Shown here: piece after piece, positions 1,031 through 43,966 of the stretch
Numbering within the stretch: the stretch's first letter is position 1
Layout: each line of letters begins with the position of its first letter
IMG/VR virus record: IMGVR_UViG_3300011102_000097
Span: 1 to 43,966 of that record
Origin: a virus
Direction: 5' to 3' (one strand)
DNA length: 43,966 nucleotides
Notes under the pieces: generated by a model
What the model saw: the letters and a program-made list of their open reading frames with translations, nothing else
Told to the model about the DNA's origin: nothing
Databases searched by the model: none
Made by a program: the position numbers and the translations under genes

Positions 1031-1596
1031 GCGAGGTCTCCGAAGTCGTCCTGCTCGGCCTGCTCGGCCTGCTCGGCCTTGCGCCGCTGGGCGATCGCGA
1101 GCAGCTGCGCCACGCGGGCCGCCTTGGTCGTCTCATCGGCATGGGCCACAGGGCCACCATCGGCGCCCGTGAGCTCTGTGCGGTCGGCGTAGACCTTCTT
1201 GCGCCGACCTTTGAGGATCAACGCCAGCAGTGCGTCGCTGTGCTTGCGCACCGTGAGGGGCACGGGCTGGCCGTTGGCGTCCAGCACGGGGCGGTAGTGC
1301 TCCTTGCCATCGTCGTCGACGTAGCGCTCGTACAGGTAGCTCAGGCGCCCCTGGTGCACGACGGGCTCCTCGTAGCCAACCACAGCCCGCCTGAAGGCCT
1401 CCTGCTCGGCCCGGTCGACGCCCTCCTCCATGGCCTCGTCCCAGGCCTTGGCGAACTCCTCGTCGGCTTCCCGGGCGCGCCAGGCGGTGACGCGGTTCAC
1501 GCCCGCCGCTTTGCAGGCGTGGCTGATCACGGGCACTTCGGCCAGTGCCAGGAGAAACAGCGCCTTCCAGTCGTAGGGCTTTTGGTGGTAGGTCAT
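1027..1596 (-). CDS. terS: Terminase small subunit (position-based call)
   Basis: 189-aa ORF immediately upstream of terL. It has an N-terminal HTH-like segment (VISHACKAAGVNRVTAWRAR) and a charged C-terminus with (AEQ)x3. Confidence 0.75.
   Translation of the reverse strand: MTYHQKPYDWKALFLLALAEVPVISHACKAAGVNRVTAWRAREADEEFAKAWDEAMEEGVDRAEQEAFRRAVVGYEEPVVHQGRLSYLYERYVDDDGKEHYRPVLDANGQPVPLTVRKHSDALLALILKGRRKKVYADRTELTGADGGPVAHADETTKAARVAQLLAIAQRRKAEQAEQAEQDDFGDLA
1051..1077. repeat. Perfect 9-bp tandem repeat (ctgctcggc)x3 in the terS 3' end
   Basis: Read directly from the sequence. It encodes AEQAEQAEQ on the minus strand. Confidence 0.9.
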
Positions 1597-1602
1597 GCCC
1601 GG

Positions 1603-1634
1603 AATCTAGCTCGCTGCTGCAATCACACGGACAC
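1603..1634 (-). promoter_or_regulatory. Candidate late promoter PL-a: GTGTCCGTGTGA-N14-TAGATT
   Basis: The minus-sense sequence is GTGTCCGTGTGA TTGCAGCAGCGAGC TAGATT CCGGGC ATG(terS). It is one of five copies with identical 14-nt spacing. Only 6 nt separate the hexamer from the ATG and there is no SD, so the mRNA would be near-leaderless. Confidence 0.55.
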
Positions 1635-1871
1635 GCGCGCCACGCGGGCGACGGCCTGGCCACGGCGCCGGCCAGTCGCGATGTGTGCAATGCACGACTT
1701 GCTCACGTCGAACTTGGCCGCCACCTCGGCGTAGCTCAGGCCAGCGTCCAGCAGGGCCAGGGCCTGCTCGACTTCATGGTCCAGGAGCTTGGCCCGCGGA
1801 TGGCCCTCGCCGATGCGCCGGCCGTTCTCGTTGAACGCGATGGACTTCTGCATGTCCAGTCCTATCTGCAA
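1623..1871 (-). CDS. Small HTH DNA-binding protein (candidate late regulator)
   Basis: 82-aa ORF with helix-turn-helix GLSYAEVAAKFDVSKSCIAHIATGRR. The second ATG at 1853 has the better SD (AGGA), so the start may be 1853. It sits at the head of the late arm after an AT-rich gap. Confidence 0.7.
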   Translation of the reverse strand: MQIGLDMQKSIAFNENGRRIGEGHPRAKLLDHEVEQALALLDAGLSYAEVAAKFDVSKSCIAHIATGRRRGQAVARVARVSV

Positions 1872-2028
1872 AATTTGCGTGTTCGTTGTCTTGCGCTGTG
1901 CCTCCGCCGCGGAGGTGTCGGGTAAGTCGGCTTTTTACCCCCCGTTTTCCCTATTACTCTCTTAGAGTTTGATTTCTATAGAGCCGATAGTAGAAAAAGG
2001 GTGTTTTTACCAGACAAACCCGACACTT

Positions 2029-5712: not shown

Positions 5713-5792
5713 TTGCAGCAAGTAGGTGGCCACCGCCCGTGGTGGCGCAGCAGAAAGCCCCTGCGCTCTAGTCGGGTTCTGCGTGTTCGTTT

Positions 5793-5808
5793 TAGCAAGT
5801 GCTACAAT
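5793..5808 (+). promoter_or_regulatory. Candidate early promoter PE1: palindrome TAGCAAGTGCTA overlapping extended -10 TGCTACAAT
   Basis: Read directly. It lies 37 nt upstream of ATG 5846. About 45 nt (GTTTTAGCA..TGCTA.AATTCGCTCAACGCAAC.ACGA) are shared with PE2. Confidence 0.6.
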
Positions 5809-5845
5809 TCGCTCAACGCAACGACGAAACCTGAAGGAGCAAGAC

Positions 5846-6106: not shown

Positions 6107-6334
6107 ATGGAAGCCAAACTCATCCTCAACATCGGCCTGAACCGCGCCAGCGGTGGTGCCATCCCCGCCGAGCAGGCCCGCCAGGCCCTGGCCGCCAACG
6201 AGTTCTTGATCGTGCGCGACGCAGTGCTTGAGTCCGACACCGAGCCCACGCTCGTGGCTGAGGTGACCAGCCTGAACGCAGACCCCTTCGTCATCCTGCA
6301 GCTGCTGTACTGCGTGGCCGAAGACCTCGACTAG
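6107..6334 (+). CDS. Early protein, 75 aa as annotated; the frame continues past TAG
   Basis: SD AAAGGAG precedes the start. The ORF stops at TAG 6332-6334, but the same frame stays open to TAA 6479-6481. Confidence 0.7.
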   Translation: MEAKLILNIGLNRASGGAIPAEQARQALAANEFLIVRDAVLESDTEPTLVAEVTSLNADPFVILQLLYCVAEDLD

Positions 6335-7125: not shown

Positions 7126-7143
7126 GGGCCGCCCAGGCGGCCC
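7126..7143 (+). promoter_or_regulatory. Intergenic GC hairpin GGGCCGCC-CA-GGCGGCCC
   Basis: 8-bp perfect stem between two early genes, with no U tract. A near-identical hairpin lies at 7389-7404. Confidence 0.5.
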
Positions 7144-7166
7144 CCGACCAACAGGAGCACACGGGC

Positions 7167-7373
7167 ATGACCACCGAGAAGATGACTGAGAACGCGGCGC
7201 AGTATCTGATCGTCGTTTACCGCACCGAGTATACGGCGGACGGGCTTCCTCGCAGCGTGCGCCACGCCCAGTTCGGCGCCAGAACGTGGGCGGAAGCTTT
7301 GAAGATGATGGCCGAGGCCAACAAGCTGAAAAAAGCCGATCCCAACTTGTACGTCAACCTGAACCGGGTCTGA
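7167..7373 (+). CDS. Early protein, 68 aa
   Basis: ORF track entry with SD AGGAG 9 nt upstream. Confidence 0.65.
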   Translation: MTTEKMTENAAQYLIVVYRTEYTADGLPRSVRHAQFGARTWAEALKMMAEANKLKKADPNLYVNLNRV

Positions 7374-7388
7374 GCAACACCCACCACG

Positions 7389-7404
7389 GGCCGCCTCGGC
7401 GGCC
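7389..7404 (+). promoter_or_regulatory. Intergenic GC hairpin GGCCGCC-TC-GGCGGCC
   Basis: 7-bp stem directly after the 7373 stop and before SD AAAGGAG of the next gene. Confidence 0.5.
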
Positions 7405-13251: not shown

Positions 13252-13555
13252 GTGCGACATCGAAAGCTACCTGGTCAAGCGGGTGAAAGCCATGGGCGGC
13301 GAGGTGCGCAAGGTCCAGTGGATCGGCCGCAACTCGGCGCCCGATCGGCTGGTGATGCTGCCGAAAACGCCGCACCACGGGCCCCGCACTGTCTGGGTGG
13401 AGCTCAAGAACCCCGAGACCGTCAAGACATTTCCGGCCAACGCGCGTGAGCGCGCCCAGGCCAGGGAGCACAAACGCATGCGCGAGCTCGGCCAGCGTGT
13501 CGAGCTGGTCGGCACGCTCGAGGCCGTCGAGGAGATTCTGTCGTGGACGAACTGA
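13244..13555 (+). CDS. VRR-NUC domain nuclease
   Basis: 103 aa. ...APDRLVML...VWVELKNP gives the D...E-x-K signature. Size and context are typical for this family. Confidence 0.8.
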   Translation: MRECDIESYLVKRVKAMGGEVRKVQWIGRNSAPDRLVMLPKTPHHGPRTVWVELKNPETVKTFPANARERAQAREHKRMRELGQRVELVGTLEAVEEILSWTN

Positions 13556-14034
13556 TCGAACGCATCCGCAAGCACGTCGTCGAGGAGGGCGACTGCTGGA
13601 ACTGGACCGGCGCACTGCAGTCCTGCGGCGCGGTGCCCACCATGCACTACAAGCGCAAGGTCGGCGCCGTGCGCCGCTTCATCCTGCTGGAGCGAGGCGT
13701 AGACCTCGGCAAGCGCCTGGCGACCTACACCTGCGGCAACTCGCTCTGCGTGAAGCCTGAGCACGTCGCGCCGGCCAGCCGCCGCGTGGTCCAGGTGCGC
13801 AGCGCCAAGGAGCTCGCCTACCCGAGCAACCCGGTGCGCCGCAAGAAGCTGTCGGATAAAGCGCGGAAGCGCGCCAAGCTCACGCCCGAGCTGGCCCGTC
13901 AGGTGCGCGAGGCCGAGGGCACGCAGGACAGCATTGCCGCGCGGTTCGGGATCTCCCAGGCCACCGTGAGCGCCATCAAGCGCGGCAAGACCTGGAAGGA
14001 CTACACCAACCCGTTTGCGGGGCTTGTTCGATGA
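13543..14034 (+). CDS. HNH-type endonuclease with C-terminal HTH
   Basis: GTG start with SD GAGGAG. Motifs are GDCWNWTG ... CGNSLCVKPEHV. The C-terminal HTH is DSIAARFGISQATVSAIKRGKTW. Confidence 0.75.
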   Translation: MDELIERIRKHVVEEGDCWNWTGALQSCGAVPTMHYKRKVGAVRRFILLERGVDLGKRLATYTCGNSLCVKPEHVAPASRRVVQVRSAKELAYPSNPVRRKKLSDKARKRAKLTPELARQVREAEGTQDSIAARFGISQATVSAIKRGKTWKDYTNPFAGLVR

Positions 14035-18763: not shown

Positions 18764-19188
18764 AGCGCAAGGCTGGCTCAGTCCACTGGCTGGACCGCTC
18801 TCTTGTTCTCGGTCCATATCTGTGCCTGTGCACCACAGAGGAGGACTACCACGCGGCGCTGGACTGCCTCAAGGTACCGGCCCTTCAGCGAGGGCCTTGG
18901 GTTGGCGCGCGCGCCGACGCAACCACTCATTTGTTGGGGAACCAGGAGAACAACTTGGTCGCTGTCGTTTGCTTGGGCGATGTTAGCCAGAGATCTCACG
19001 TTGACGTAGCCGCCTTGCTGGTCCACGAGGCCGTGCACGTGTGGCAAGCGTTTTGCGAGCACATCGGTGAGAAGTCGCCAAGCAGTGAGTTCGAGGCATA
19101 CAGCATTCAGCGCATCACCCACGAGCTGTTAAGCGCGTTCGCCCAGCAGTCGGAGCGTCGCGCCCAAGTACAAGAGAGGTCAACATGA
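18760..19188 (+). CDS. Mini HExxH protein (putative zinc metallopeptidase), 142 aa
   Basis: Start is ATG 18760, overlapping the upstream stop (ATGA). The motif is ALLVHEAVHVWQAFCEHIGE...EFEAY. The upstream part of track ORF 18613..19188 is not needed. Confidence 0.6.
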   Translation: MKRKAGSVHWLDRSLVLGPYLCLCTTEEDYHAALDCLKVPALQRGPWVGARADATTHLLGNQENNLVAVVCLGDVSQRSHVDVAALLVHEAVHVWQAFCEHIGEKSPSSEFEAYSIQRITHELLSAFAQQSERRAQVQERST

Positions 19189-19562
19189 TCGACGGCGCCC
19201 GCGTCCTATCAACGCGCAGCACCCCCTACGGCTTCAAGCGGCGGCGCTACCAGCTCGCGGACGGCCGGCGCATCACCACCTACGAGGTGCCCTACGCCAT
19301 CCTGAGCCACCTGGGAGCCGCCAGACTGCGCGAAGCCGTGCAGAAGTGGCAGCGCGGCGAATGCGCGAGGAGCCAGGCTCATGCGCGCCGCCAGCGCATC
19401 ATCGCGCTGTTGGTTCAGGGCTGGAAGCCTACCGCCATCGCGCACGAAGTGGGCATCACCGAGCAGCGCGTGCGCCAGATCCGCGCTGAGTGGCGCAAGG
19501 AGCTAGGCGAGATCGACAACACAGCCTCGGTGCCGTTTTACAAGTTGGAGAATCTGTCATGA
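19185..19562 (+). CDS. HTH protein, sigma region-4 / LuxR-like (candidate middle/late regulator), 125 aa
   Basis: ORF track entry, coupled by ATGA. The HTH is RIIALLVQGWKPTAIAHEVGITEQRVRQIRAEW. Confidence 0.7.
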   Translation: MIDGARVLSTRSTPYGFKRRRYQLADGRRITTYEVPYAILSHLGAARLREAVQKWQRGECARSQAHARRQRIIALLVQGWKPTAIAHEVGITEQRVRQIRAEWRKELGEIDNTASVPFYKLENLS

Positions 19563-23541: not shown

Positions 23542-25938
23542 CTACCCAAGTGTCGCCCAAGTACCACTGCTGGCCTTGTAGCCCTCGTAGTTCCCGGTCG
23601 TGGAGTTGTATATGATCATGCCGTTGACTTTGTTCGGCAACGCATCACGCTGGGCAGTCGTAACCACCGCCGCGACTGCCGAAGGCACGTTGAATCGGTA
23701 GTAATAGCCGTCCAGCGCGTCAAAATCGAAAATTCCAAGCGCGGAGGACAGCTTGCCGTACCTAAAGGCAATGTTCCCGTTTTCTAGAATTCTGTTTTCG
23801 GCAATACTCCCAGTAACACCATTTGCTTTAATCTGGCGCTCATCTCTCAAGCCTGCAGTCGCGCCGTTACGGCGAGCGCTGTTTCCGAAGGCGTTTGTGC
23901 CTTTGACAACCTCAAGTCCGCCAGTCGTGCCGGTTGTGATGTTACGAATTGCTGGCGTACGAAGCGTTCCGTTAGCGTCGAGCGATGTGCCGATTTCACT
24001 ACCTATCAACGTCCACGCCTCGCTAAAAACGTAGGCGTACCGCGTCGATTGCGAGAAAAGCCCGGTGACTTCACTCTCAATCACGTTGAATAGTTCAATT
24101 CCGTCACCGTCGAACGAACTCGCGCCAACTGAACCGCCGTTGACGTAGCTTTTGAACGAAGACCTCAAAAACGGCAAATCGGCGGTACCAAGAATAACGC
24201 ACGACTCCGAACCACCCAATGAGGTTCGGGCGTTACTAAATCCCTCGAAATAGTTTCCGATCACGTCGAGCGAGCGGCCCGCAATGATTGCGTTTGTTGC
24301 CCCGTTGTACTCAGACGTATTGCCGGCGATAAAGCCAGCCTGAACGCTCTCAACCTGAAAACCTTCGGCCCCGTTCAGCGAGAACCAGTTTCCTGTGAAA
24401 CAGAAGGCGTTATTGCCGTCAGTGTCGGTCGGCGATGTTGCGTGAAACCATCCTCCGCGTCCGCCGTTGTTCGTCACACGATTTCCGCTGAACTCATAAG
24501 ACCAGCTTTCATAGAGGTCAATGCCATCGCCAGTAGCGCCGCGGATCTCGCAATCGCGCACGACGCACTGACGTGTGAAGCGCTCAAGCTGTAGACAATT
24601 TAGCGCCAATGAATTGCCGTCCAGTCTCCAGCCGATAATTTTCACATTCTCAAGTGACTTGTTCGGAATCGACCGGTTTGCGAGTAGCGACCTGATAATC
24701 GGCCCGGCGCTATTGGCCCGAAGGGTGGCGCCGTACCCAGAAAAATAGCGGTCGTCGTCGTTTAAATCGAGCGTCGATACTGAGTAGATTTTTCCCGGCA
24801 GGCCCTTCACTACGCGGCAGAACGTGAGGCACGCCAAGATCGCAGCCGTGTCGTCTGCAACGCCGTTGCCAACCGCACCAAACCACTCAACAGGAACCTC
24901 GTCTGCTGATCTTTCCCAACGGCCGTTCGCCGGAAGGCTGTTTGGCTGGATAACCGTACCGCCATTGTCGGCATTCGTGCTGGACGGAACCCACAGGAAG
25001 GCGCTGCCACCGCCGTCATTGGGGGTGTAGTACCCCTCAACATAAACCACGGTCTTGCGCGAAGGGACCGGGAGCGCTCGAAGCGACGCAATGCTGTCAA
25101 CACGCGCCACTGCGTTGGCGACAAGGGCTGCACCGTTGCTGGGGTCAGTGGTGTCGGCGAGATCTGTCCGCAGCCCAGGGTCGCCTCCAGCAGCCGGCAA
25201 ACCCTCGCCGTAGCGCACCAGTAGTTCGGCGCCCACACCGGGCGGTACGGTCGTCACGATGTTGCCGGCGACCAGCGTGTAGTCGACGCCCGGCGTGAGT
25301 ACCAGGCCGTCGAGCGACACGTCGGTGTTGCCGATCGTGACCGGGTCGACGGTCAAGGGGAACGTGTCGGTGACACCGTCGCCGGTGAACACCTGATGGC
25401 GGTAGTTGGCGAACGCCAGTGCCGTGGCGATCTGCGACAGCGGGAAGTTCTGCAGCCCTGTTTCGGCGTTGTTCCAGCCTATCAGCGCGTTGCTCTGCGG
25501 GCTCGGCAACGCCGAGTTGGCGTTCGACGACACCGGCGCGCGCAGCGTGCGATCCATCTCCTCGCGCAACTGCTGGATCTGCATCGTGGTGCGGTCGAGT
25601 TGGTTTTCGAGCGCAAGCGGGGAGAAGTTTCCGCCACTCGGCAGATCCAGGGCCTGGTCGTAGTCGATGTTGCCGATGATCGACAGCACACTGCCAGACG
25701 GCAGCGGCGAGCCGCTGATTGGGTAGTTGACGGTGCCGCCCGGGCTTGTGTCCTGGTTGGGGTTCAGGGTGACTGTGTAGTCGGAGTTGAGCACCAGGAC
25801 GGTCTCAACGCCCGCGCTGTTGGCGATGACCACCTTGATATCGGTGGGGGCGAACACCTTGAACGCGAACGGAAACGACGTCGTCACGCCATTGCCCAGC
25901 AGCGGGCCGGCCTTGCGTGGAGTGGAAGGGATCGTCAT
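23542..25938 (-). CDS. Tailspike / tail fibre with pectate-lyase-like beta-helix
   Basis: 798 aa. An N-terminal anchor domain is followed by VEWFGAVGNGVADDTAAILACL at the start of a right-handed beta-helix-type domain. It is the last structural gene before lysis. Confidence 0.85.
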   Translation of the reverse strand: MTIPSTPRKAGPLLGNGVTTSFPFAFKVFAPTDIKVVIANSAGVETVLVLNSDYTVTLNPNQDTSPGGTVNYPISGSPLPSGSVLSIIGNIDYDQALDLPSGGNFSPLALENQLDRTTMQIQQLREEMDRTLRAPVSSNANSALPSPQSNALIGWNNAETGLQNFPLSQIATALAFANYRHQVFTGDGVTDTFPLTVDPVTIGNTDVSLDGLVLTPGVDYTLVAGNIVTTVPPGVGAELLVRYGEGLPAAGGDPGLRTDLADTTDPSNGAALVANAVARVDSIASLRALPVPSRKTVVYVEGYYTPNDGGGSAFLWVPSSTNADNGGTVIQPNSLPANGRWERSADEVPVEWFGAVGNGVADDTAAILACLTFCRVVKGLPGKIYSVSTLDLNDDDRYFSGYGATLRANSAGPIIRSLLANRSIPNKSLENVKIIGWRLDGNSLALNCLQLERFTRQCVVRDCEIRGATGDGIDLYESWSYEFSGNRVTNNGGRGGWFHATSPTDTDGNNAFCFTGNWFSLNGAEGFQVESVQAGFIAGNTSEYNGATNAIIAGRSLDVIGNYFEGFSNARTSLGGSESCVILGTADLPFLRSSFKSYVNGGSVGASSFDGDGIELFNVIESEVTGLFSQSTRYAYVFSEAWTLIGSEIGTSLDANGTLRTPAIRNITTGTTGGLEVVKGTNAFGNSARRNGATAGLRDERQIKANGVTGSIAENRILENGNIAFRYGKLSSALGIFDFDALDGYYYRFNVPSAVAAVVTTAQRDALPNKVNGMIIYNSTTGNYEGYKASSGTWATLG

Positions 25939-25942
25939 GGGA

Positions 25943-25984
25943 GGGGGCTCCTGCGTACTGCGGGAATGGTACGCAGGAGCCCCC
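25943..25984 (-). promoter_or_regulatory. 16-bp perfect hairpin whose 3' arm contains the tailspike SD
   Basis: GGGGGCTCCTGCGTAC (25943-25958) pairs with GTACGCAGGAGCCCCC (25969-25984). In minus sense AGGAG sits 9 nt before ATG 25938 and inside the stem. There is no U tract. Confidence 0.6.
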
Positions 25985-25997
25985 TGCTCACGGACAC
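25966..25997 (-). promoter_or_regulatory. Candidate late promoter PL-e: GTGTCCGTGAGC-N14-TACCAT
   Basis: It starts 1 nt after the stop of the 2267-aa gene. The -10-like hexamer lies in the hairpin loop region. Confidence 0.5.
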
Positions 25998-25998
25998 A

Positions 25999-28900
25999 TC
26001 AAGGCGTCCGGCTCTCAGGACTGGCCGTACCCGTCACCAGCCCCCGGGCCAGATCCACCGGCCCGGTGGGCTCGATGCGCCCGTCGGCCATGCCGGCGAG
26101 GTAGCCGGCGGGGCGCGCTGCCGCGTAAATCGGCAGACCGGTGATCAGCGTCGCGGCAGCCGCTACGTCGCGCACGGCCTTCTGCGCGCTGCCGTCGTCG
26201 ATGATCGCCTTGTAGACGCTGGCCGGAGCGCTCACGGCGGACTCCAGCAGCGACACCGCGGGCGACAGCGAGAACTTGTCGTCGGCCGGGTTGTCGTTGA
26301 ACCGGTTGACCACGAGCTGCGCCGCTTGGCCCACGATCGGCACCTGGGCGGTCAGGCCCCGCAGCGTGCCCATACCGAACACGGCCATCAGCCAGTCGTC
26401 CAGGTAGCCGTCGTCGTCCTCGTCCTCGGGGCCGCCACGGAACGCCAGGGCGATCGCCTCGGCCACCCAGATCGGCACCAGGAGCCCGGCGAGCGCCACA
26501 TACAGCAGGCGCCCCGCACCCTTGCGCAGGCCCATCTCGTCCACGATCTGCTTCATCGCGGTGGCGTTGGTGTTCGCCATCATGTTGAAGTAGCTCACGA
26601 ACTGCGTGAACAGGCGCGCGTAGGCCGGGCCGCTCTCGAACCGGCTGATGTCCTCGGGCAGCGTCGTGCCCTGGGTCTGGCGGATCACGCCGTCGGCAAA
26701 GCGCACGGCGTCCTTGTGGCTCATCTGCTGCTCGATGGCCTGGTTGTAGGCGGCAGTCCAGATGATCGGGCTCATGGTGTTGTCGACCGCGGCCTGCATG
26801 AAGTAGGCGTGGCGCTGGGTCCAGGCTTGGGCCTTTTCCAGTACGGTCGCGTTGACCAGGATCTGCTCGACGGCGTCGTTCATGGCGGCCACCTCGTTGA
26901 GCATGCGGTTGCGCATGAACGCCGACGCCGTGGCGACTTGCTCCTTCATCGCCTTGGGGTCAGCGATGAACGAGGCGGTGGCCTTCATCATGAGCGAGGG
27001 CTTGACCTTGACCGCGGCCAGCGAGAAGCCGGTGATCTGCTGGAACGTGTTCGAGAGGTTCGCGAACATGAGCGCCATGCCGGCGCGCGAGCGCGCGGCC
27101 GACAGGAAGCGCGAGAGCTTGCGGTCGCCCGCCACCGGGGTCTCGACGATCTGCTTGGCGGCGCGGTTCAACCAGGGGATCAGCATGCCCTCGTAGGCGC
27201 CCGGGTCGATGCGGTCGAGCGCGTAGCTCACGCGCTTGTTCGTGAGCAGACGGCGCACATCGGTGACCGGGCCCTGCATGTACGAGAACAGCAGCACCTT
27301 GTCCATGTGCTGGGCCAGCGCGCGCAGGTCGAGCAGTAAAGGTTTGTTGTACTCGACGCGGGCCTTGGTGAAGCCGCGGGGGCTGGCCGGGAACGCGTAA
27401 GCCATGGACTCGTTTTCGGCCTCGGCCAGCTCACGCAGCTTCGCGTCTTTCACCAGGCGCGAGTCGGTCTGGGCCGGGACGTAGCCGCCGCGGTAGCTGC
27501 CGAACGGGGTGTCGAACGGGGTGGCCGTGACCTCGGCGAAGTAGCGGCCGAACACCTTGCGGTGCGTCTCCTGGGCCCGCGGCTTCATCTCCTCGAGCAA
27601 ATCCCACACACCCTGAGCGAAGTCGTAGTGCGCCTTCTCGAGCTTGCCCTCGTTGATCATGCGCGCGATGAACGCGTCCCAGCGGCTGGTGTCGAGGGTG
27701 CCGTCCTCCCGCTCGGTGGCCCAACCGCGGCCGAGCAGGAGCTTGCGCTTGTTGGACTCGTTGCCGGTGTGCAGGATCGCGTGCAGCAGCTCGGCCTGCC
27801 CGCTGTCGCGAGCGTTGCCGAAGGTGTAGCCGAGCTCAGGCGCGGGGATCTCGCCCGGACGGATGACGTGCGAGACGCTTTCGACCAGCGCGGTGAAGCG
27901 CTTGCGGTAGTCGACGCGCGCGGCGCGATAGGCGTCGGCCGCCTCCTTGATCGGCCGGAACACGAGCCGCAGGAACGGGCCGCCGAACTTGCCGTCCATG
28001 CGCTCGGCCCACTGCTCGACGCGCGAGAGGATGGCCTTGGCGAACTGCAGCTTGATCCCCGCCTCCTCGCGGTCGGTGATCGCGGCGCGCTCGCCCGGGA
28101 TCTCGGTCGGGATGCCGATCTCCTCCATGCGCGCGAGCAGCTCATCGGCGGCGTCTTCGATGTCGAGGAGGTTGCCGTCGACTTCCATCTGCCGCGAGCG
28201 CTTGGCCAGCTCCCACATGGCGCGCAGCTCGTCGTTCAAGCCGCGCAGCTCCTCTAGCGTCAGCTCGTCCAGGGGCTTGGCGTTCAGCAGAGCGCTGTCG
28301 ACGCTGGGTTTGAGCGCGGCGTACATGGCCGGGTCGTTCTTGGCCACGGTCTCCATGTAGGCGAGCGCGGACTTCTCGAGCCGCGGCGCCACGCCGTAGG
28401 CGGCCAGGATGGCGCGCATCGCGTTGACGACGTCGGGGTCGCGCCCCTTCTCCACTGTCTTCTCGTCGCTGCCCTTAGTGACCTTGCGGAAGAACTCGAG
28501 CGTCTTCTTCACCTCGGCCTGGGCGTCCTGCAGCGCCTTGGCGGCGTAGTTGTTCAGGAGCTGGTCGCGCTTGGCCTGCACGGCCTCCACGGTCTTGCCC
28601 TCTGCGGTGAGCTGCTGCCAACGCTTGCCGGCCCGGCCCTCGGCGGCGCGATGCTGCCAGGCGGCGTTCTTCAGATCCTTGATGCGGCGACGTGCAGCCA
28701 GGTTGAGCCCGAACTGCTTGGCCGCCTCGACCACGGCGTTGACCGTGATGGGCCGGCCGCGCGCGTCGGTGCGCCCGGTGTCCAGGCGCTGGTTGATCAT
28801 CTCCGCCTGGCTCTTCAGCTCGGTGGCGAGCGCCCGCGCCCGGGCCTCGTTGTGCACGGCCTCGTTCGCTGCGGCCTCGCGCGCCTCGGGCGTGGCGAGG

Positions 28901-35005: not shown

Positions 35006-35482
35006 TCAGGCTCGCATTTCAAATGGGTGGAAGGGCTCGCCCAGCGGGCCGTAAGGCACGGCCTCGTGCAGCGTGAACCCCAACCGGCGCAACCATCGCA
35101 CGCTGGTGGTGTTCTTCGCGTGCACGTAGTTCACCAGATGGGGGAACATCTTCAGCATTCGGGAAATGTACTCGGGGGTCCGGCGGACAAGGATACGCTG
35201 GTGTCGTTCGAGCACGGGCGTGCCGAGCATCCAGGGCGAGCCGATACCGGTGAGCGCGTTGATCGGGGCCACGCCGAAGATCGCGGCGAGATCGCCGTCC
35301 GCCAGGCCGGTCCAGCACAGCGCCGAGCGGTCCACGCTCGAGGCGATGCTGGCGGCGATGTCGGGGTGCCCGTAGGCCTGGCACTCGGCCAGGTCGGAGG
35401 CGCGCAGGTTGGCAAAAAGCCGGGCAGCATCGCCCGGCTCGGTGGGCCGGATCAGGACATCAGCCACCGGTCTGGACCTCAA
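35006..35482 (-). CDS. Acetyltransferase-fold / T7 gp13-like virion protein, ~153-158 aa
   Basis: The pattern is ...LCWTGLADGDLAAIFGVAP...SPWMLGT...LVNYVHAKNTTSVRWLRRLGF. The track start is TTG 35482. GTG 35467 with GAGG upstream is the more likely start. Confidence 0.6.
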   Translation of the reverse strand: MRSRPVADVLIRPTEPGDAARLFANLRASDLAECQAYGHPDIAASIASSVDRSALCWTGLADGDLAAIFGVAPINALTGIGSPWMLGTPVLERHQRILVRRTPEYISRMLKMFPHLVNYVHAKNTTSVRWLRRLGFTLHEAVPYGPLGEPFHPFEMRA

Positions 35483-37769: not shown

Positions 37770-38401
37770 GCGCGGACCGCCAGCAGCGTGGGTTGCGGCA
37801 GCGACTCGGCGCTCGAGGCGTTGGCGCTCGCGGTGGCGGACACGTCAGCGAGCGCAAGTGCGCGCTGGCGCATGCCGTCGCCCACGCGCACGCCCTCGTT
37901 GCCTTTGATGATAGGCCCGGCCAGGTAGCTGGCCAGCAGGTAGGACAGCGCGCTGATGAAGCTCGCCGGGAACTTGGTCGAGTCGGTCACGTCTTGCACG
38001 TAGACCAGCACCGCGTCGGGTTCGTTGGTGAAAATCACGTCGCCCTCGACGTCAAACGAGGCGCTGCCGCTATCGTCGGCGTGGGGGTCAACCACCAGGT
38101 CCTGGGTGAACACCGTGACGGCGATCGAGGGGCGCAGGATGCGCAGCGCACGCAGGCAGTTCGATGGCTTGGCGTAGGCGTAGGCCCAGCCCGTGCTGGG
38201 GTTGGTGACCTCGGCCAGGGGGGCGCGCTTGAGTGAAAACGCCCAGTTGCCGGGCTCGAGCAGCTCGGTGCGGGCGAGATCGTAGAACATGGCGCAGTGG
38301 CCGGCCTCGACCGAGCCGTCGGGCGGGCTGATCGACGAGACGCGGGCCTCAGAGCCGATGTGGCTCAGGGCCATGTTGCAGATCTGGACGACTGAGGCCA
38401 T
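37766..38401 (-). CDS. Tail tubular protein A-like (adaptor)
   Basis: 211 aa with N-terminus VVQICNMALSHIGSEARVSSISPPDGSVEAGHC. It is coupled by ATGA to the nozzle gene. Confidence 0.6.
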   Translation of the reverse strand: MASVVQICNMALSHIGSEARVSSISPPDGSVEAGHCAMFYDLARTELLEPGNWAFSLKRAPLAEVTNPSTGWAYAYAKPSNCLRALRILRPSIAVTVFTQDLVVDPHADDSGSASFDVEGDVIFTNEPDAVLVYVQDVTDSTKFPASFISALSYLLASYLAGPIIKGNEGVRVGDGMRQRALALADVSATASANASSAESLPQPTLLAVRA

Positions 38402-38420
38402 GGCAATTCTCCTGGCCGCC

Positions 38421-38458
38421 AGTGTAGGCGCGGGGGTCTAGGACACGGACACGGACAC
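38421..38458 (-). promoter_or_regulatory. Candidate late promoter PL-d: (GTGTCC)x3-N14-TACACT
   Basis: The minus-sense sequence is GTGTCCGTGTCCGTGTCC TAGACCCCCGCGCC TACACT GGCGGCCAGGAGAATTGCC ATG. It lies directly after the capsid-operon terminator. Confidence 0.6.
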
Positions 38459-38460
38459 GC

Positions 38461-38495
38461 AACAGAAAAGGGGCTCCACAAAATGGAGCCCCTTT
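38461..38495 (-). terminator. Intrinsic terminator after the capsid gene block
   Basis: The stem is AAAGGGGCTCCA / TGGAGCCCCTTT (12 bp) with a 5-nt loop. In minus sense it is followed by TTTTCTGTTG. Confidence 0.85.
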
Positions 38496-40856: not shown

Positions 40857-41172
40857 CTCTGGTCCTTCCGTGCTCCTTGAGCACTTTCATGAACCCGTCG
40901 GGCGACGCCTCGATGAGCTCCGCGGTCAAGAACAGGCCCATGTGCCGCTTGCCTTCGTTGAACGCCATAACGCTGCCGCTGTGGCTGAAGGAACTGCGGT
41001 ACACGCCCGCCTCGTCCAGGAGCCGCGTTACGATGCGGCGCCCTTGCGGGTGACCCAGCAACCAACGAAGATCCTCCAGCTCTTTGCGTCGGCGCTCGCG
41101 CGCCCCCGCCTCTTCGGCTTCGGCGTCGCGTTCCAGGCGCTTCAGGTCTGTCGGATCGTCGTAGGCTGCCAC
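40849..41172 (-). CDS. Small head-module protein, 107 aa (Bbp19-like, from memory)
   Basis: GTG start with no SD, 7 nt after the TACATT hexamer of PL-c. It contains ...MAFNEGKRHMGLFLTAELIEASPDGF. Confidence 0.55.
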   Translation of the reverse strand: MAAYDDPTDLKRLERDAEAEEAGARERRRKELEDLRWLLGHPQGRRIVTRLLDEAGVYRSSFSHSGSVMAFNEGKRHMGLFLTAELIEASPDGFMKVLKEHGRTRDD

Positions 41173-41179
41173 GGTTGCG

Positions 41180-41211
41180 AATGTAGCGCGCGCCTTCTAG
41201 CTCACGGATAC
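41180..41211 (-). promoter_or_regulatory. Candidate late promoter PL-c: GTATCCGTGAGC-N14-TACATT
   Basis: It starts 8 nt after the portal stop. It has one mismatch to the 9-mer core and the same 14-nt spacing. Confidence 0.5.
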
Positions 41212-42914: not shown

Positions 42915-43111
42915 CACTGCCCGAGCAGGGTCGTGCGTCCGGTGGTCAGCGCGCCCTGGGGCACGCCCGAGGGGCCGGTGAGCAGTGAGCCGCCCGCCAT
43001 GCCAGTGCGGTTACGGCGTGCGCTCGCCCGCAGGTTGGCGCTGTCGGGTTGCTTGACCTCTTGCGGAGGCGGCGGGGGCGGCGGAATGTCGGGGCTTTTG
43101 GCCAGGCACAT
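42914..43111 (-). CDS. 65-aa poly-proline protein
   Basis: ATG 43111 lies 8 nt after AGGAG. Translation is MCLAKSPDIPPPPPPPQEVKQPDSANLRASARRNRTGMAGGSLLTGPSGVPQGALTTGRTTLLGQ. The upstream part of track ORF 42914..43387 overlaps terL and is rejected. Confidence 0.6.
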   Translation of the reverse strand: MCLAKSPDIPPPPPPPQEVKQPDSANLRASARRNRTGMAGGSLLTGPSGVPQGALTTGRTTLLGQ

Positions 43112-43139
43112 TGGTCGGACTCCTATCGATAGCACCCGC

Positions 43140-43171
43140 ATTGTGCGGGCCGCCCAAGGCGACACGGACAC
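43140..43171 (-). promoter_or_regulatory. Candidate late promoter PL-b: GTGTCCGTGTCG-N14-CACAAT
   Basis: It lies in the 68-nt gap between the terL stop (43180) and ATG 43111. The hexamer sits in a small hairpin, CCCGCA-CAA-TGCGGG. Confidence 0.5.
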
Positions 43172-43179
43172 GCCGGAGA

Positions 43180-43966
43180 TCAGAGCCGGCTGTACGGGTC
43201 CCACTCCAGCGCGTTGTCCGGTGCAGCCTCCCGCTCGATGTAGCGCAGCTGGTGCACCTTTGGTGTGTCCATGAGCGCCAGAATCAGCGCACTCGCGCGG
43301 TCGGGCGAGCGCCCCACGCGCTTGATGATCTCCTCGCGCGACTCGACCTTGATCGTCATGCCGGAGAGCTCCCACCGGGGCGCGCACAGCTCCTTGAGCA
43401 GGTCGGGGTCGGGCGGCAGCGCGATCCCGTTGTTGGCCTCGGGGTCCAGGGCCTCACGCATCTGCCACCAGAGCTGGCTGCGCAGGTTGAAGAACGTCAG
43501 GCGCCCGGACTTGTCGCGCGCGGTTGCCTTCTCGCTCACGTTGACGCCGTACACCGGCTGCCCCGCATCGCTCAGCACGTCGTAGGGGCTCGCACCCACG
43601 CCGACCACGTCCAGGTGGATCGGTGCATGGTCGCGGTGCTCGCCGATCACCAGCCCCGCCACCTTGCGCCCGTTCGGCGTCTCGCTGCCCGGGTAGAGCT
43701 TGAGCCGGTCGAACCAGAGCTCGGTGTCGTCGTTCTTGTAGCGGGTCGCGATGACCGTGTTGTCCTTGCCCCCTCGCGCCACGTCGACACCCATCGACAT
43801 GAGCTCGCCCTTGCGTGCGCGCTCGCGCCAGCGCTCCTGGGCGAGCTCAACCCAGCGCGTCGGGATCACCTGGAAGGGGTCGTCCTCTATACCGGCCTGG
43901 AAGTCGCCCAGCAGCATCTGGCTGCGCAGGGGCTCGGGCAGCGCCTGCAACTGCGCCATGTAGCCG
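43180..43966 (-). CDS. terL: Terminase large subunit, C-terminal nuclease part (continuation of 947..1)
   Basis: Track ORF 43180..43959 starts at an internal Met. The frame is open to the window end and is identical to bases 1-123. It contains ...MSMGVDVARGGKDNTVIA... and the C-terminal RNaseH-like segment. Confidence 0.9.
   Translation of the reverse strand, partial: GYMAQLQALPEPLRSQMLLGDFQAGIEDDPFQVIPTRWVELAQERWRERARKGELMSMGVDVARGGKDNTVIATRYKNDDTELWFDRLKLYPGSETPNGRKVAGLVIGEHRDHAPIHLDVVGVGASPYDVLSDAGQPVYGVNVSEKATARDKSGRLTFFNLRSQLWWQMREALDPEANNGIALPPDPDLLKELCAPRWELSGMTIKVESREEIIKRVGRSPDRASALILALMDTPKVHQLRYIEREAAPDNALEWDPYSRL
43844..43966. repeat. Terminal direct repeat, right copy (identical to 1..123)
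   Basis: Same comparison as the left copy. The window ends exactly where the identity ends. Confidence 0.95.

Follow-up and report, generated by a model that had tools for sequence, protein, structure and literature searches.

Predicted late promoters of a BPP-1-like podophage carry a lineage-specific 9-mer at the position of the -35 box

What turns on the late genes of a BPP-1-like podophage? The question is posed by IMG/VR virus record IMGVR_UViG_3300011102_000097 (43,966 bp, 66% G+C; the whole stretch is called the window here), the genome of such a phage, in which a 9-mer, GTRTCCGTG in the clade of the window, is followed at a fixed distance by a hexamer resembling a -10 box in front of one late gene block after another. 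Judged from the sequence, six sites of this kind are very probably late promoters, and it is reasonably probable that their 9-mer replaces the -35 box and is read by an activator, a small helix-turn-helix (HTH) protein designated HTH82. The sites are listed below with their scores from a weight matrix that was trained on 140 unique sites of relatives, the window being left out (aa, amino acids).

Positions 1594..1634, minus strand: predicted late promoter a (terS); 9-mer GTGTCCGTG at 1634-1626, 17-nt spacer, TAGATT at 1608-1603; score 30.7.
Positions 43133..43171, minus strand: predicted late promoter b (65-aa gene, portal); 9-mer at 43171-43163, CACAAT at 43145-43140; score 29.0.
Positions 41170..41211, minus strand: predicted late promoter c (107-aa gene, protease/scaffold, major capsid protein); 9-mer GTATCCGTG at 41211-41203, TACATT at 41185-41180; score 29.3.
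Positions 38414..38458, minus strand: predicted late promoter d (tail tubular proteins A, B onward); 9-mer at 38452-38444, TACACT at 38426-38421; score 34.2.
Positions 35158..35198, minus strand: predicted sixth, internal late promoter; 9-mer GTATCCTTG at 35198-35190, N17, TACATT at 35172-35167; score 22.9.
Positions 25936..25997, minus strand: predicted late promoter e (tailspike, holin); 9-mer at 25997-25989, TACCAT at 25971-25966; score 18.2.

The original prediction had placed five copies (a to e) on the minus strand, and all of them were located at those positions, with the spacing from 12-mer to hexamer identical in all five exactly as it had described. Its assignment of the copies to the non-coding gaps of the late arm also stands, as every such gap longer than 45 nt has a site. 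A by-eye scan had yielded no further full copies, which does not hold in view of the sixth copy at 35198..35167 on the minus strand. For site d the location was right, but the 9-mer in register with the -10 box is that at 38452..38444 and not the outermost GTGTCC; the extra GTGTCC makes an overlapping second 9-mer at 38458-38450, giving tandem GTGTCC repeats. Site b does lie before the 65-aa gene as had been suggested, with the start of that gene corrected to 43111.

The pattern GTRTCCGTG-N18-A-N3-T was found five times in the window, on the minus strand in all five instances, against a mean of 0.03 matches in shuffled sequences, none of 100 of which reached five. The exact 9-mer is restricted to the five loci. 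Since 9-mers with one mismatch, taken alone, occur at the level of chance (21 in the window, 17.6 expected), it is the bipartite layout that carries the signal. Scanning both strands with a weight matrix had been proposed as a check; it put the sites at the top of the minus strand and gave no plus-strand match comparable to them: the best scored 10.8, where the mean of the per-shuffle maxima was 5.5 and the top single shuffle reached 19.3. This best plus-strand match (TTCTGCGTG-N17-TACAAT, 5775-5816) precedes the rightward genes, within the divergent region of early control, and probably represents an early promoter whose -35 box is weak; its partial likeness (CGTG) to the late 9-mer may be due to chance.

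As the first 123 bp of the window are identical to its last 123 bp (1-123 and 43844-43966), it represents a complete, circularly assembled genome of about 43,843 bp, the terL gene spanning the two ends (1160 down to 1, continuing at 43959-43180). The late arm lies on the minus strand and begins with the HTH gene, terS, terL, the 65-aa gene and portal, followed by the 107-aa gene, protease/scaffold, major capsid protein and tail tubular proteins A and B, and ends with internal virion proteins, a 2267-aa protein, tailspike and holin. Close DNA relatives were not found among isolated phages.

Relatives were obtained from IMG/VR by a search with the portal protein, which gave 198 of them, and 80 loci (L001-L080; 68-93% amino-acid identity) were kept. 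In them the late strand holds 158 copies of the exact 9-mer and the opposite strand 3, and sites occupy matching positions at terS (29), the 65-aa gene (66), the 107-aa gene (66) and the 211-aa tail gene (31). Conservation in related phages, on which the original prediction had wished to see itself judged, is therefore present, at matching positions and in a strand-specific manner. A logo of 168 unique sites gave the hexamer T/c-A-C/a-A/g-A/c-T, with A2 in 153 and T6 in 151 of them, a fixed 17-nt spacer, and a preference for C then A at the predicted -1/+1, 6-7 nt past the hexamer. One sublineage has an 18-nt spacer with the hexamer unchanged, and more distant loci carry GTATCCGTG, GTGTCCATG or TATCCATG as the 9-mer. 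In loci retrieved with the C-terminus of the 2267-aa protein (L084-L116), site e with its TACCAT stands at the same position before the tailspike in most.

The hexamers had been taken for boxes resembling the sigma70 -10 element, and this is borne out by the retention of A2 and T6 in relatives at 17-18 nt from the 9-mer and by the presence of both bases at all six sites of the window. At such a spacing, conserved A2 and T6 mark a -10 box that a sigma70-family factor reads, and a spacer range of 17-18 nt is the tolerance expected of -35/-10 spacing. At the -35 position stands TCCGTG, which agrees with TTGACA at 1 of 6 bases. A scan for consensus promoters and terminators called 0/6 sites, and it also missed the following terminator because A-U pairs lengthen its stem.

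Positions 38461..38495, minus strand: intrinsic terminator ending the head-gene transcript; stem GGGGCUCC/GGAGCCCC, 7-nt loop and U-tract; it adjoins promoter d upstream.

The terminator folds at -25.7 kcal/mol (z = -5.1; 0/200 shuffles fold as well), and with a strong terminator directly before d the tail genes need re-initiation of transcription. The motif as an RNA structure was ruled out, as the RNA at sites b and c folds no better than shuffles and searches of Rfam and for transfer RNAs gave no matches.

We infer the transcription starts from the observed geometry of the sites. At a, the ATG of terS (1596-1594) begins 6 nt past the hexamer and the predicted +1 is the A of this ATG; at c, the GTG start at 41172 lies 7 nt past the hexamer, for which a leaderless mRNA or one with a 1-nt leader is predicted. 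The original prediction was thus correct in leaving only 6-7 nt between these two sites and their start codons, and with start codons at the predicted +1 the mRNAs from a and c would be leaderless. The arrangement recurs in relatives: the terS start codon is 6-7 nt past the hexamer in 27/29 of those with a homologous terS, and the start codon of the 107-aa gene is 6-9 nt past it at 53/66 sites. Start codons at the predicted +1 are ATG (39), GTG (28) and TTG (5), so that the first base is nearly always a purine. At b the predicted +1 falls near 43133, and the ATG at 43111 follows a leader of 28 nt that contains a GGAG ribosome-binding site; at d the predicted +1 falls near 38414, with a ribosome-binding site in the 19-nt gap and the ATG at 38401.

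Site a is also a case of dual coding. The last codons of the HTH gene had been noticed to form this copy of the motif, and V-S-V-stop does coincide with the 9-mer; in general the 9-mer of the terS promoter encodes a C-terminal V-X-V of the HTH protein in which X is set by the motif (VSV by GTGTCCGTG, VHV by GTGCACGTA and VPV by GTGCCCGTA). If correct, the leaderless geometry settles at which codons terS and the 107-aa gene start, and it suggests that the annotated terS start of BPP-1 lies too far upstream. In that phage (L081; record 26254-26336, minus strand) the 9-mer of the terS promoter is at 26293, downstream of the annotated start at 26318, and the true start is probably about 60 nt downstream of the annotated one, at a leaderless ATG. 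Further 9-mers on the minus strand of BPP-1 (NC_005357) start at 24131, 20746 and 6184, and leaderless mRNAs beginning at the ATG are predicted for the two at 24131 and 20746.

The sixth site falls within the gene of the 158-aa internal virion protein, ahead of the genes for the ejection proteins, and has an in-frame ATG (35160) 6 nt past its hexamer. It is kept in 21 relatives, with an ATG again 6 nt past the hexamer; BPP-1 is without it. Within the coding region it is preserved through the use of codons that are otherwise rare (CGT, 9% of Arg; CTT, 4% of Leu; ATT, 11% of Ile). A leaderless transcript from here would encode a 50-aa C-terminal fragment of the 158-aa protein together with the downstream ejection genes.

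At site e the predicted +1 is near 25959 and the tailspike ATG at 25938. The site is set within a perfect inverted repeat of 16 bp (25984-25969 / 25958-25943), by which the promoter spacer is paired with the ribosome-binding site of the tailspike gene in a hairpin of -43 kcal/mol (z = -7.2). Relatives were folded sequence by sequence, as the stems shift and a consensus alignment (MAFFT, RNAalifold) was uninformative. Of 19 sequences including the window, 13 retain the inverted repeat with altered stems. Also in 13 of the 19, RNA that spans the 9-mer and extends to the ATG has a folding energy of about -29 to -42 kcal/mol, and RNA from the predicted +1 one of -0.4 to -5 kcal/mol. BPP-1 has a counterpart hairpin, with a U-tract, before bbp9 (record 6126-6186). 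RNA reading through e would accordingly be expected to end there or to be translated poorly, and RNA started at e to be translatable.

If these sites are promoters, what reads the 9-mer? The genome had been said to lack an RNA polymerase gene, and this stands: the 869-aa open reading frame (ORF), considered as a hidden RNA polymerase, was rejected as it encodes a D5-type primase/helicase, and none came up when the other ORFs were scanned with Pfam and PHROGs. Likewise no sigma factor was found in Pfam, PHROGs and NCBIfam scans of the ORFs, with no match to Sigma70_r2; the only sub-threshold matches to a region-4-like HTH were those of a 125-aa protein and an HNH endonuclease. The other large ORFs encode a DNA polymerase, an exonuclease, a helicase and structural proteins, and the remaining ones are for replication or structure or have no match. 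The HNH endonuclease, a 163-aa HTH-bearing protein that was considered as a sigma factor and rejected, resembles homing endonucleases, has its HTH at the C-terminus and is inserted in the replication arm (13543-14034, plus strand); it is absent from BPP-1 and SR18.

The same geometry with differing 9-mers occurs in BPP-1 (GTGCCCGTG), in SR18 (GTGCGCATG), in DC33, zth2-2 and MW202722 (GTACCCGTA) and in Thiobacillus and Cupriavidus prophages, the prophage 9-mers being GTGCACGTA, GTGCCCGTW, GTGCACATA and GTATACGTA. Since the 9-mer varies between lineages and the -10 hexamer is constant, a phage factor probably reads the 9-mer. When the BPP-1-like regulon is defined by GTRYNYRTR, a spacer of 17-18 nt and TAnnnT on the late strand together with a Bbp27-family gene upstream of terS, all of these are found in the window, BPP-1, SR18, DC33, zth2-2, MW202722 and the prophages, and they are absent from epsilon15 and Vibrio phage PS25B.1. 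DC33 (L082, PQ492659.1) is placed in Inoviridae by the GenBank taxonomy, yet has a 39-kb BPP-1-like podophage genome with portal, capsid and tail genes.

The gene that accompanies the motif is the following.

Positions 1623..1853, minus strand: HTH82 gene, encoding a 76-aa HTH protein of the BPP-1 Bbp27 family (Pfam HTH_38); conserved upstream of terS.

The ORF at 1623-1871 corresponds to 82 aa, and the protein has 76 aa when read from the ATG at 1853. A homologue stands directly upstream of terS in 53/53 loci with sufficient flanking sequence, including those whose primase or terS is non-homologous. HTH82 is 49% identical to Bbp27 of BPP-1 and is the sole small DNA-binding gene common to the window, BPP-1 and SR18. 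When a hidden Markov model of the family and a count of the motif were applied to seven phage genomes, five had both on the same strand (BPP-1, SR18, DC33, zth2-2 and MW202722) and two had neither (epsilon15 and Vibrio phage PS25B.1). A tblastn search of the phage collection with the 76-aa protein matched the BPP-1 group only, the query being short. The Pfam matches obtained are generic (HTH_38, HTH_23, HTH_7), with no NCBIfam family, and members of the protein family are unnamed or annotated as 'endonuclease', as Bbp27 is in RefSeq, or 'response regulator'. An AlphaFold2 model of HTH82 has N-terminal beta strands, a three-helix HTH (residues 25-60) and a C-terminal strand; its weak fold matches are the Pax paired domain, Hin, Mos1 and NarL, which are monomeric HTH domains, and judged by this model an asymmetric 9-mer would fit a monomeric HTH.

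The HTH82 family also follows the motif in sequence. Among 82 unique family proteins and 26 variants of the 9-mer, a CG[CT] core goes with ST[VI]xDI in helix 3 in 7/7 cases, and this helix-3 Asp is found in 0/41 combinations in which the core is CAC, CAT, CCC, TAC or TCC; with TGC it occurs once. Where the core is TCC, Cys54 is present in 14/16. The entropy-normalised mutual information with the core is 0.70 for helix 3 versus 0.61 elsewhere (Mann-Whitney p = 0.0009). From the co-occurrence and the covariation, HTH82 is a rather likely candidate for the specificity factor that reads the 9-mer. It is one of two candidate factors that had been proposed in the original prediction; the other, the 125-aa HTH_23 protein at 19185-19562 with a sigma-region-4-like HTH, was rejected since it is not conserved: BPP-1 and SR18 lack a homologue, and the sole relatives in IMG/VR, 2 in number, are on other contigs.

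Two further arrangements were observed around the HTH gene. A palindrome, GCAAATTTTGC (GTGCAAA-N2-3-TTTGCA in relatives), lies at 1878-1868 on the minus strand, 15-25 nt upstream of the ATG of the HTH gene and just upstream of its ribosome-binding site; kept across lineages, it may be an operator that controls the proposed activator. In prophage-like elements of a different architecture (L125 6977-7060 and L128 8440-8520), the HTH homologue is preceded by tandem arrays of three different 9-mers, for example GTGCCCGTA, GTGCACGTA and GTGCGCGTA, 19-30 nt apart, of which the last is followed by N17, the hexamer and, in L125, an ATG 6 nt later.

Several points weigh against reading the sites as HTH82-dependent late promoters. 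Site e, with its score below that of the best shuffle, is by score alone not above chance, and GTG, which serves E. coli poorly as a leaderless start, accounts for many of those predicted here. The association of HTH82 with the motif is a correlation, with shared ancestry as a confounder. The recognition helix is rather different among phages that have the same TCC-type 9-mer (SKSCIAHIATG, SKGCIWKIVQG, SKSCARWICTG), so that there is no simple recognition code. The model of HTH82 is of moderate confidence (pLDDT, predicted local distance difference test, 79) and a Foldseek search with it gave no match at E <= 0.001, and a small HTH gene beside terS could instead serve DNA packaging.

The last of these points belongs to the explanation that survives best after the one that we favour, and which we nevertheless regard as unlikely: the sites would be late promoters, with the 9-mer read by another phage factor, which could be another small early protein such as the 125-aa HTH_23 protein, or an unrecognised sigma-like or sigma-remodelling protein, and with HTH82 in a different role, for example in packaging or repression. 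The correlational nature of the HTH82 link leaves room for it, as do the many early ORFs to which no function is assigned, and the 125-aa protein has, besides its region-4-like HTH, a weak match to the PHROG 'late transcriptional activator' (E = 8e-4) and a sub-threshold one to the C-terminus of extracytoplasmic function (ECF) sigma factors. The narrow distribution of the 125-aa protein speaks against it, as BPP-1 and SR18 have the same promoter layout without it; no other small regulator is common to the family; and it is HTH82 that co-occurs with the motif across the seven genomes tested and whose helix follows the core of the 9-mer.

Less probable still is the use of these promoters by a host alternative sigma factor or by the unaided host holoenzyme, with no phage factor. 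The hexamer is indeed host-like, and no phage sigma or RNA polymerase gene was found in the ORF scans, but two Thiobacillus prophages, L120 and L124, differ in the 9-mer (the two being GTGCACGTA and GTGCCCGTW), so that it varies within one host genus as well as between lineages, which argues against a host sigma factor. TCCGTG shares one base with TTGACA, the motif is limited to the late strand of the phage, and TAnnnT is unlike the known -10 elements of ECF, RpoH, RpoN and FliA promoters.

Least credible of all is a non-promoter signal (a repressor operator, an antitermination or processing site, or a packaging or replication signal) with an incidental hexamer, since the operator-like look of the L125 and L128 arrays, the strong hairpin around site e and the tandem GTGTCC repeats at site d stand against A2 and T6 in about 90% of the 168 unique sites at a fixed spacing of 17-18 nt, start codons at the predicted +1 in several lineages, a terminator before d that calls for re-initiation, unstructured sites b and c with no Rfam match, and the single promoter, not six, of lambda Q-type antitermination.

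We return to late promoters activated through HTH82, the mechanism that we consider reasonably probable. We infer the identity of the activator and its contacts with polymerase from the observed sequence features, their conservation and their covariation. The host RNA polymerase holoenzyme would read the sigma70 -10 hexamer (T-A-c-a-a-T), and the phage-lineage-specific, asymmetric GTRTCCGTG at about -38 to -30 would replace the -35 hexamer, being bound by an HTH82 monomer that recruits or stabilises polymerase as an activator. As the HTH82 gene is at the end of the leftward primase operon, build-up of its product would turn on six late transcription units: terS/terL, the 65-aa gene/portal, the head genes up to the terminator, the tail genes, the ejection proteins (from the internal promoter) and tailspike/holin. 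Transcripts from a, c and probably the internal site would begin at the first base of the start codon and be leaderless. At promoter e, read-through RNA would bury the ribosome-binding site of the tailspike gene in the hairpin, and RNA started at e would be without the 5' arm.

A bolder version, which we put forward tentatively and consider doubtful, is that HTH82 may be a minimal one-protein counterpart of sigma appropriation, in which a monomer at -35 docks on sigma region 4, the beta-flap or the alpha C-terminal domain. Its private -35 element would be retuned in each lineage by a few residues of the recognition helix, of which Asp with the CGC core and Cys with the TCC core could be examples, and leaderless late mRNAs and a terS 9-mer carried in the activator's own C-terminal codons would belong to the same design.

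A separate feature of this region is the gap that parts the replication gene from the HTH gene (1872-2028, minus strand). It is locally A+T-rich, and in relatives (L002-L062) the matching gap has an A+T-rich core surrounded by dense, lineage-specific iterated repeats in both orientations, such as TGCAAC/GTTGCA, GAAGG/CCTTC, CCCTGAAAC or GTAGGG. Which repeats are present appears to switch along with the upstream replication module, and the gap looks like a replication origin with iterons.

If true, the proposed system would explain the timing of late genes in the BPP-1-like podophages, a family that includes the model diversity-generating retroelement (DGR) phage BPP-1 and extends to Caulobacter and Limnohabitans phages, to Thiobacillus, Cupriavidus and Massilia prophages and to hundreds of freshwater and soil metagenomic genomes, and it would give a widespread small HTH protein a testable function. 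In the literature searched, which did not cover the 2004 BPP-1 genome and 2020 Rauchvirus papers, no published account of BPP-1-type late promoters or of Bbp27 function was found, and no late regulator is assigned there for the family. The 9-mer variants, at least 26 with variant recognition helices, would form a series for studying how the specificity of a -35-replacing activator evolves and are a possible source of orthogonal promoter-activator pairs.

How does the system compare with those already known? The original prediction had likened the layout to that of activator- or appropriator-dependent promoters, naming MotA, Ogr and Mu C. At the level of sequence the layout agrees, but no homology to those proteins was found, and no ORF has a Pfam or PHROG match to MotA or AsiA. 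As in the T4 middle promoters (MotA/AsiA), the host sigma70 -10 is kept, a phage-specific asymmetric box replaces the -35, several promoters form one temporal class and a monomeric phage DNA-binding protein is, in our proposal, the reader. The box sequence differs, however, and it lies at -38 to -30 here and is centred near -30 in T4; the candidate here is a single 76-aa HTH protein.

A good -10, a poor or absent -35 and an obligatory activator site in the -35 region are also features of the late promoters of P2 (Ogr), Mu (Mor, C) and P1 (Lpa) and of the pho boxes of PhoB. The sites of Ogr, Mor and C are dyad-symmetric and further upstream, and that of P1 is an inverted repeat near -22, whereas the 9-mer here is asymmetric and exactly at the -35 position, with no homology found to the proteins of P2, Mu and P1. 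Promoters of the T7-like and N4-like kind are set apart by the phage RNA polymerase gene, and phage or ECF sigma promoters by the sigma gene with a region-2 domain, neither of which was found in the ORFs of the window. From lambda Q antitermination the system is distinguished by six dispersed promoters, one of them re-initiating after a terminator, and no Q-family match was obtained.

In the RinA/Ltr superfamily of Gram-positive phages, a small activator gene just upstream of terS turns on the packaging, morphogenesis and lysis genes (PMC3152322, PMC3753634). The position of the HTH82 gene next to terS is alike, but HTH82 belongs to none of the RinA, ArpU and Ltr families by Pfam and NCBIfam; there is essentially one late promoter, upstream of terS, in those phages against six along the late arm here, and the hosts here are Alpha- and Betaproteobacteria. 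The closest likeness is with BPP-1 (Rauchvirus), SR18 (Caulobacter) and DC33 (Limnohabitans), which have syntenic genomes, the same promoter layout with 9-mers of their own, and the same HTH gene upstream of terS (Bbp27 in BPP-1, gp003c in SR18 and ORF 7138-7398 in DC33). In its proposed mechanism the system resembles promoters with an activator site in place of the -35 box, and it is widespread.

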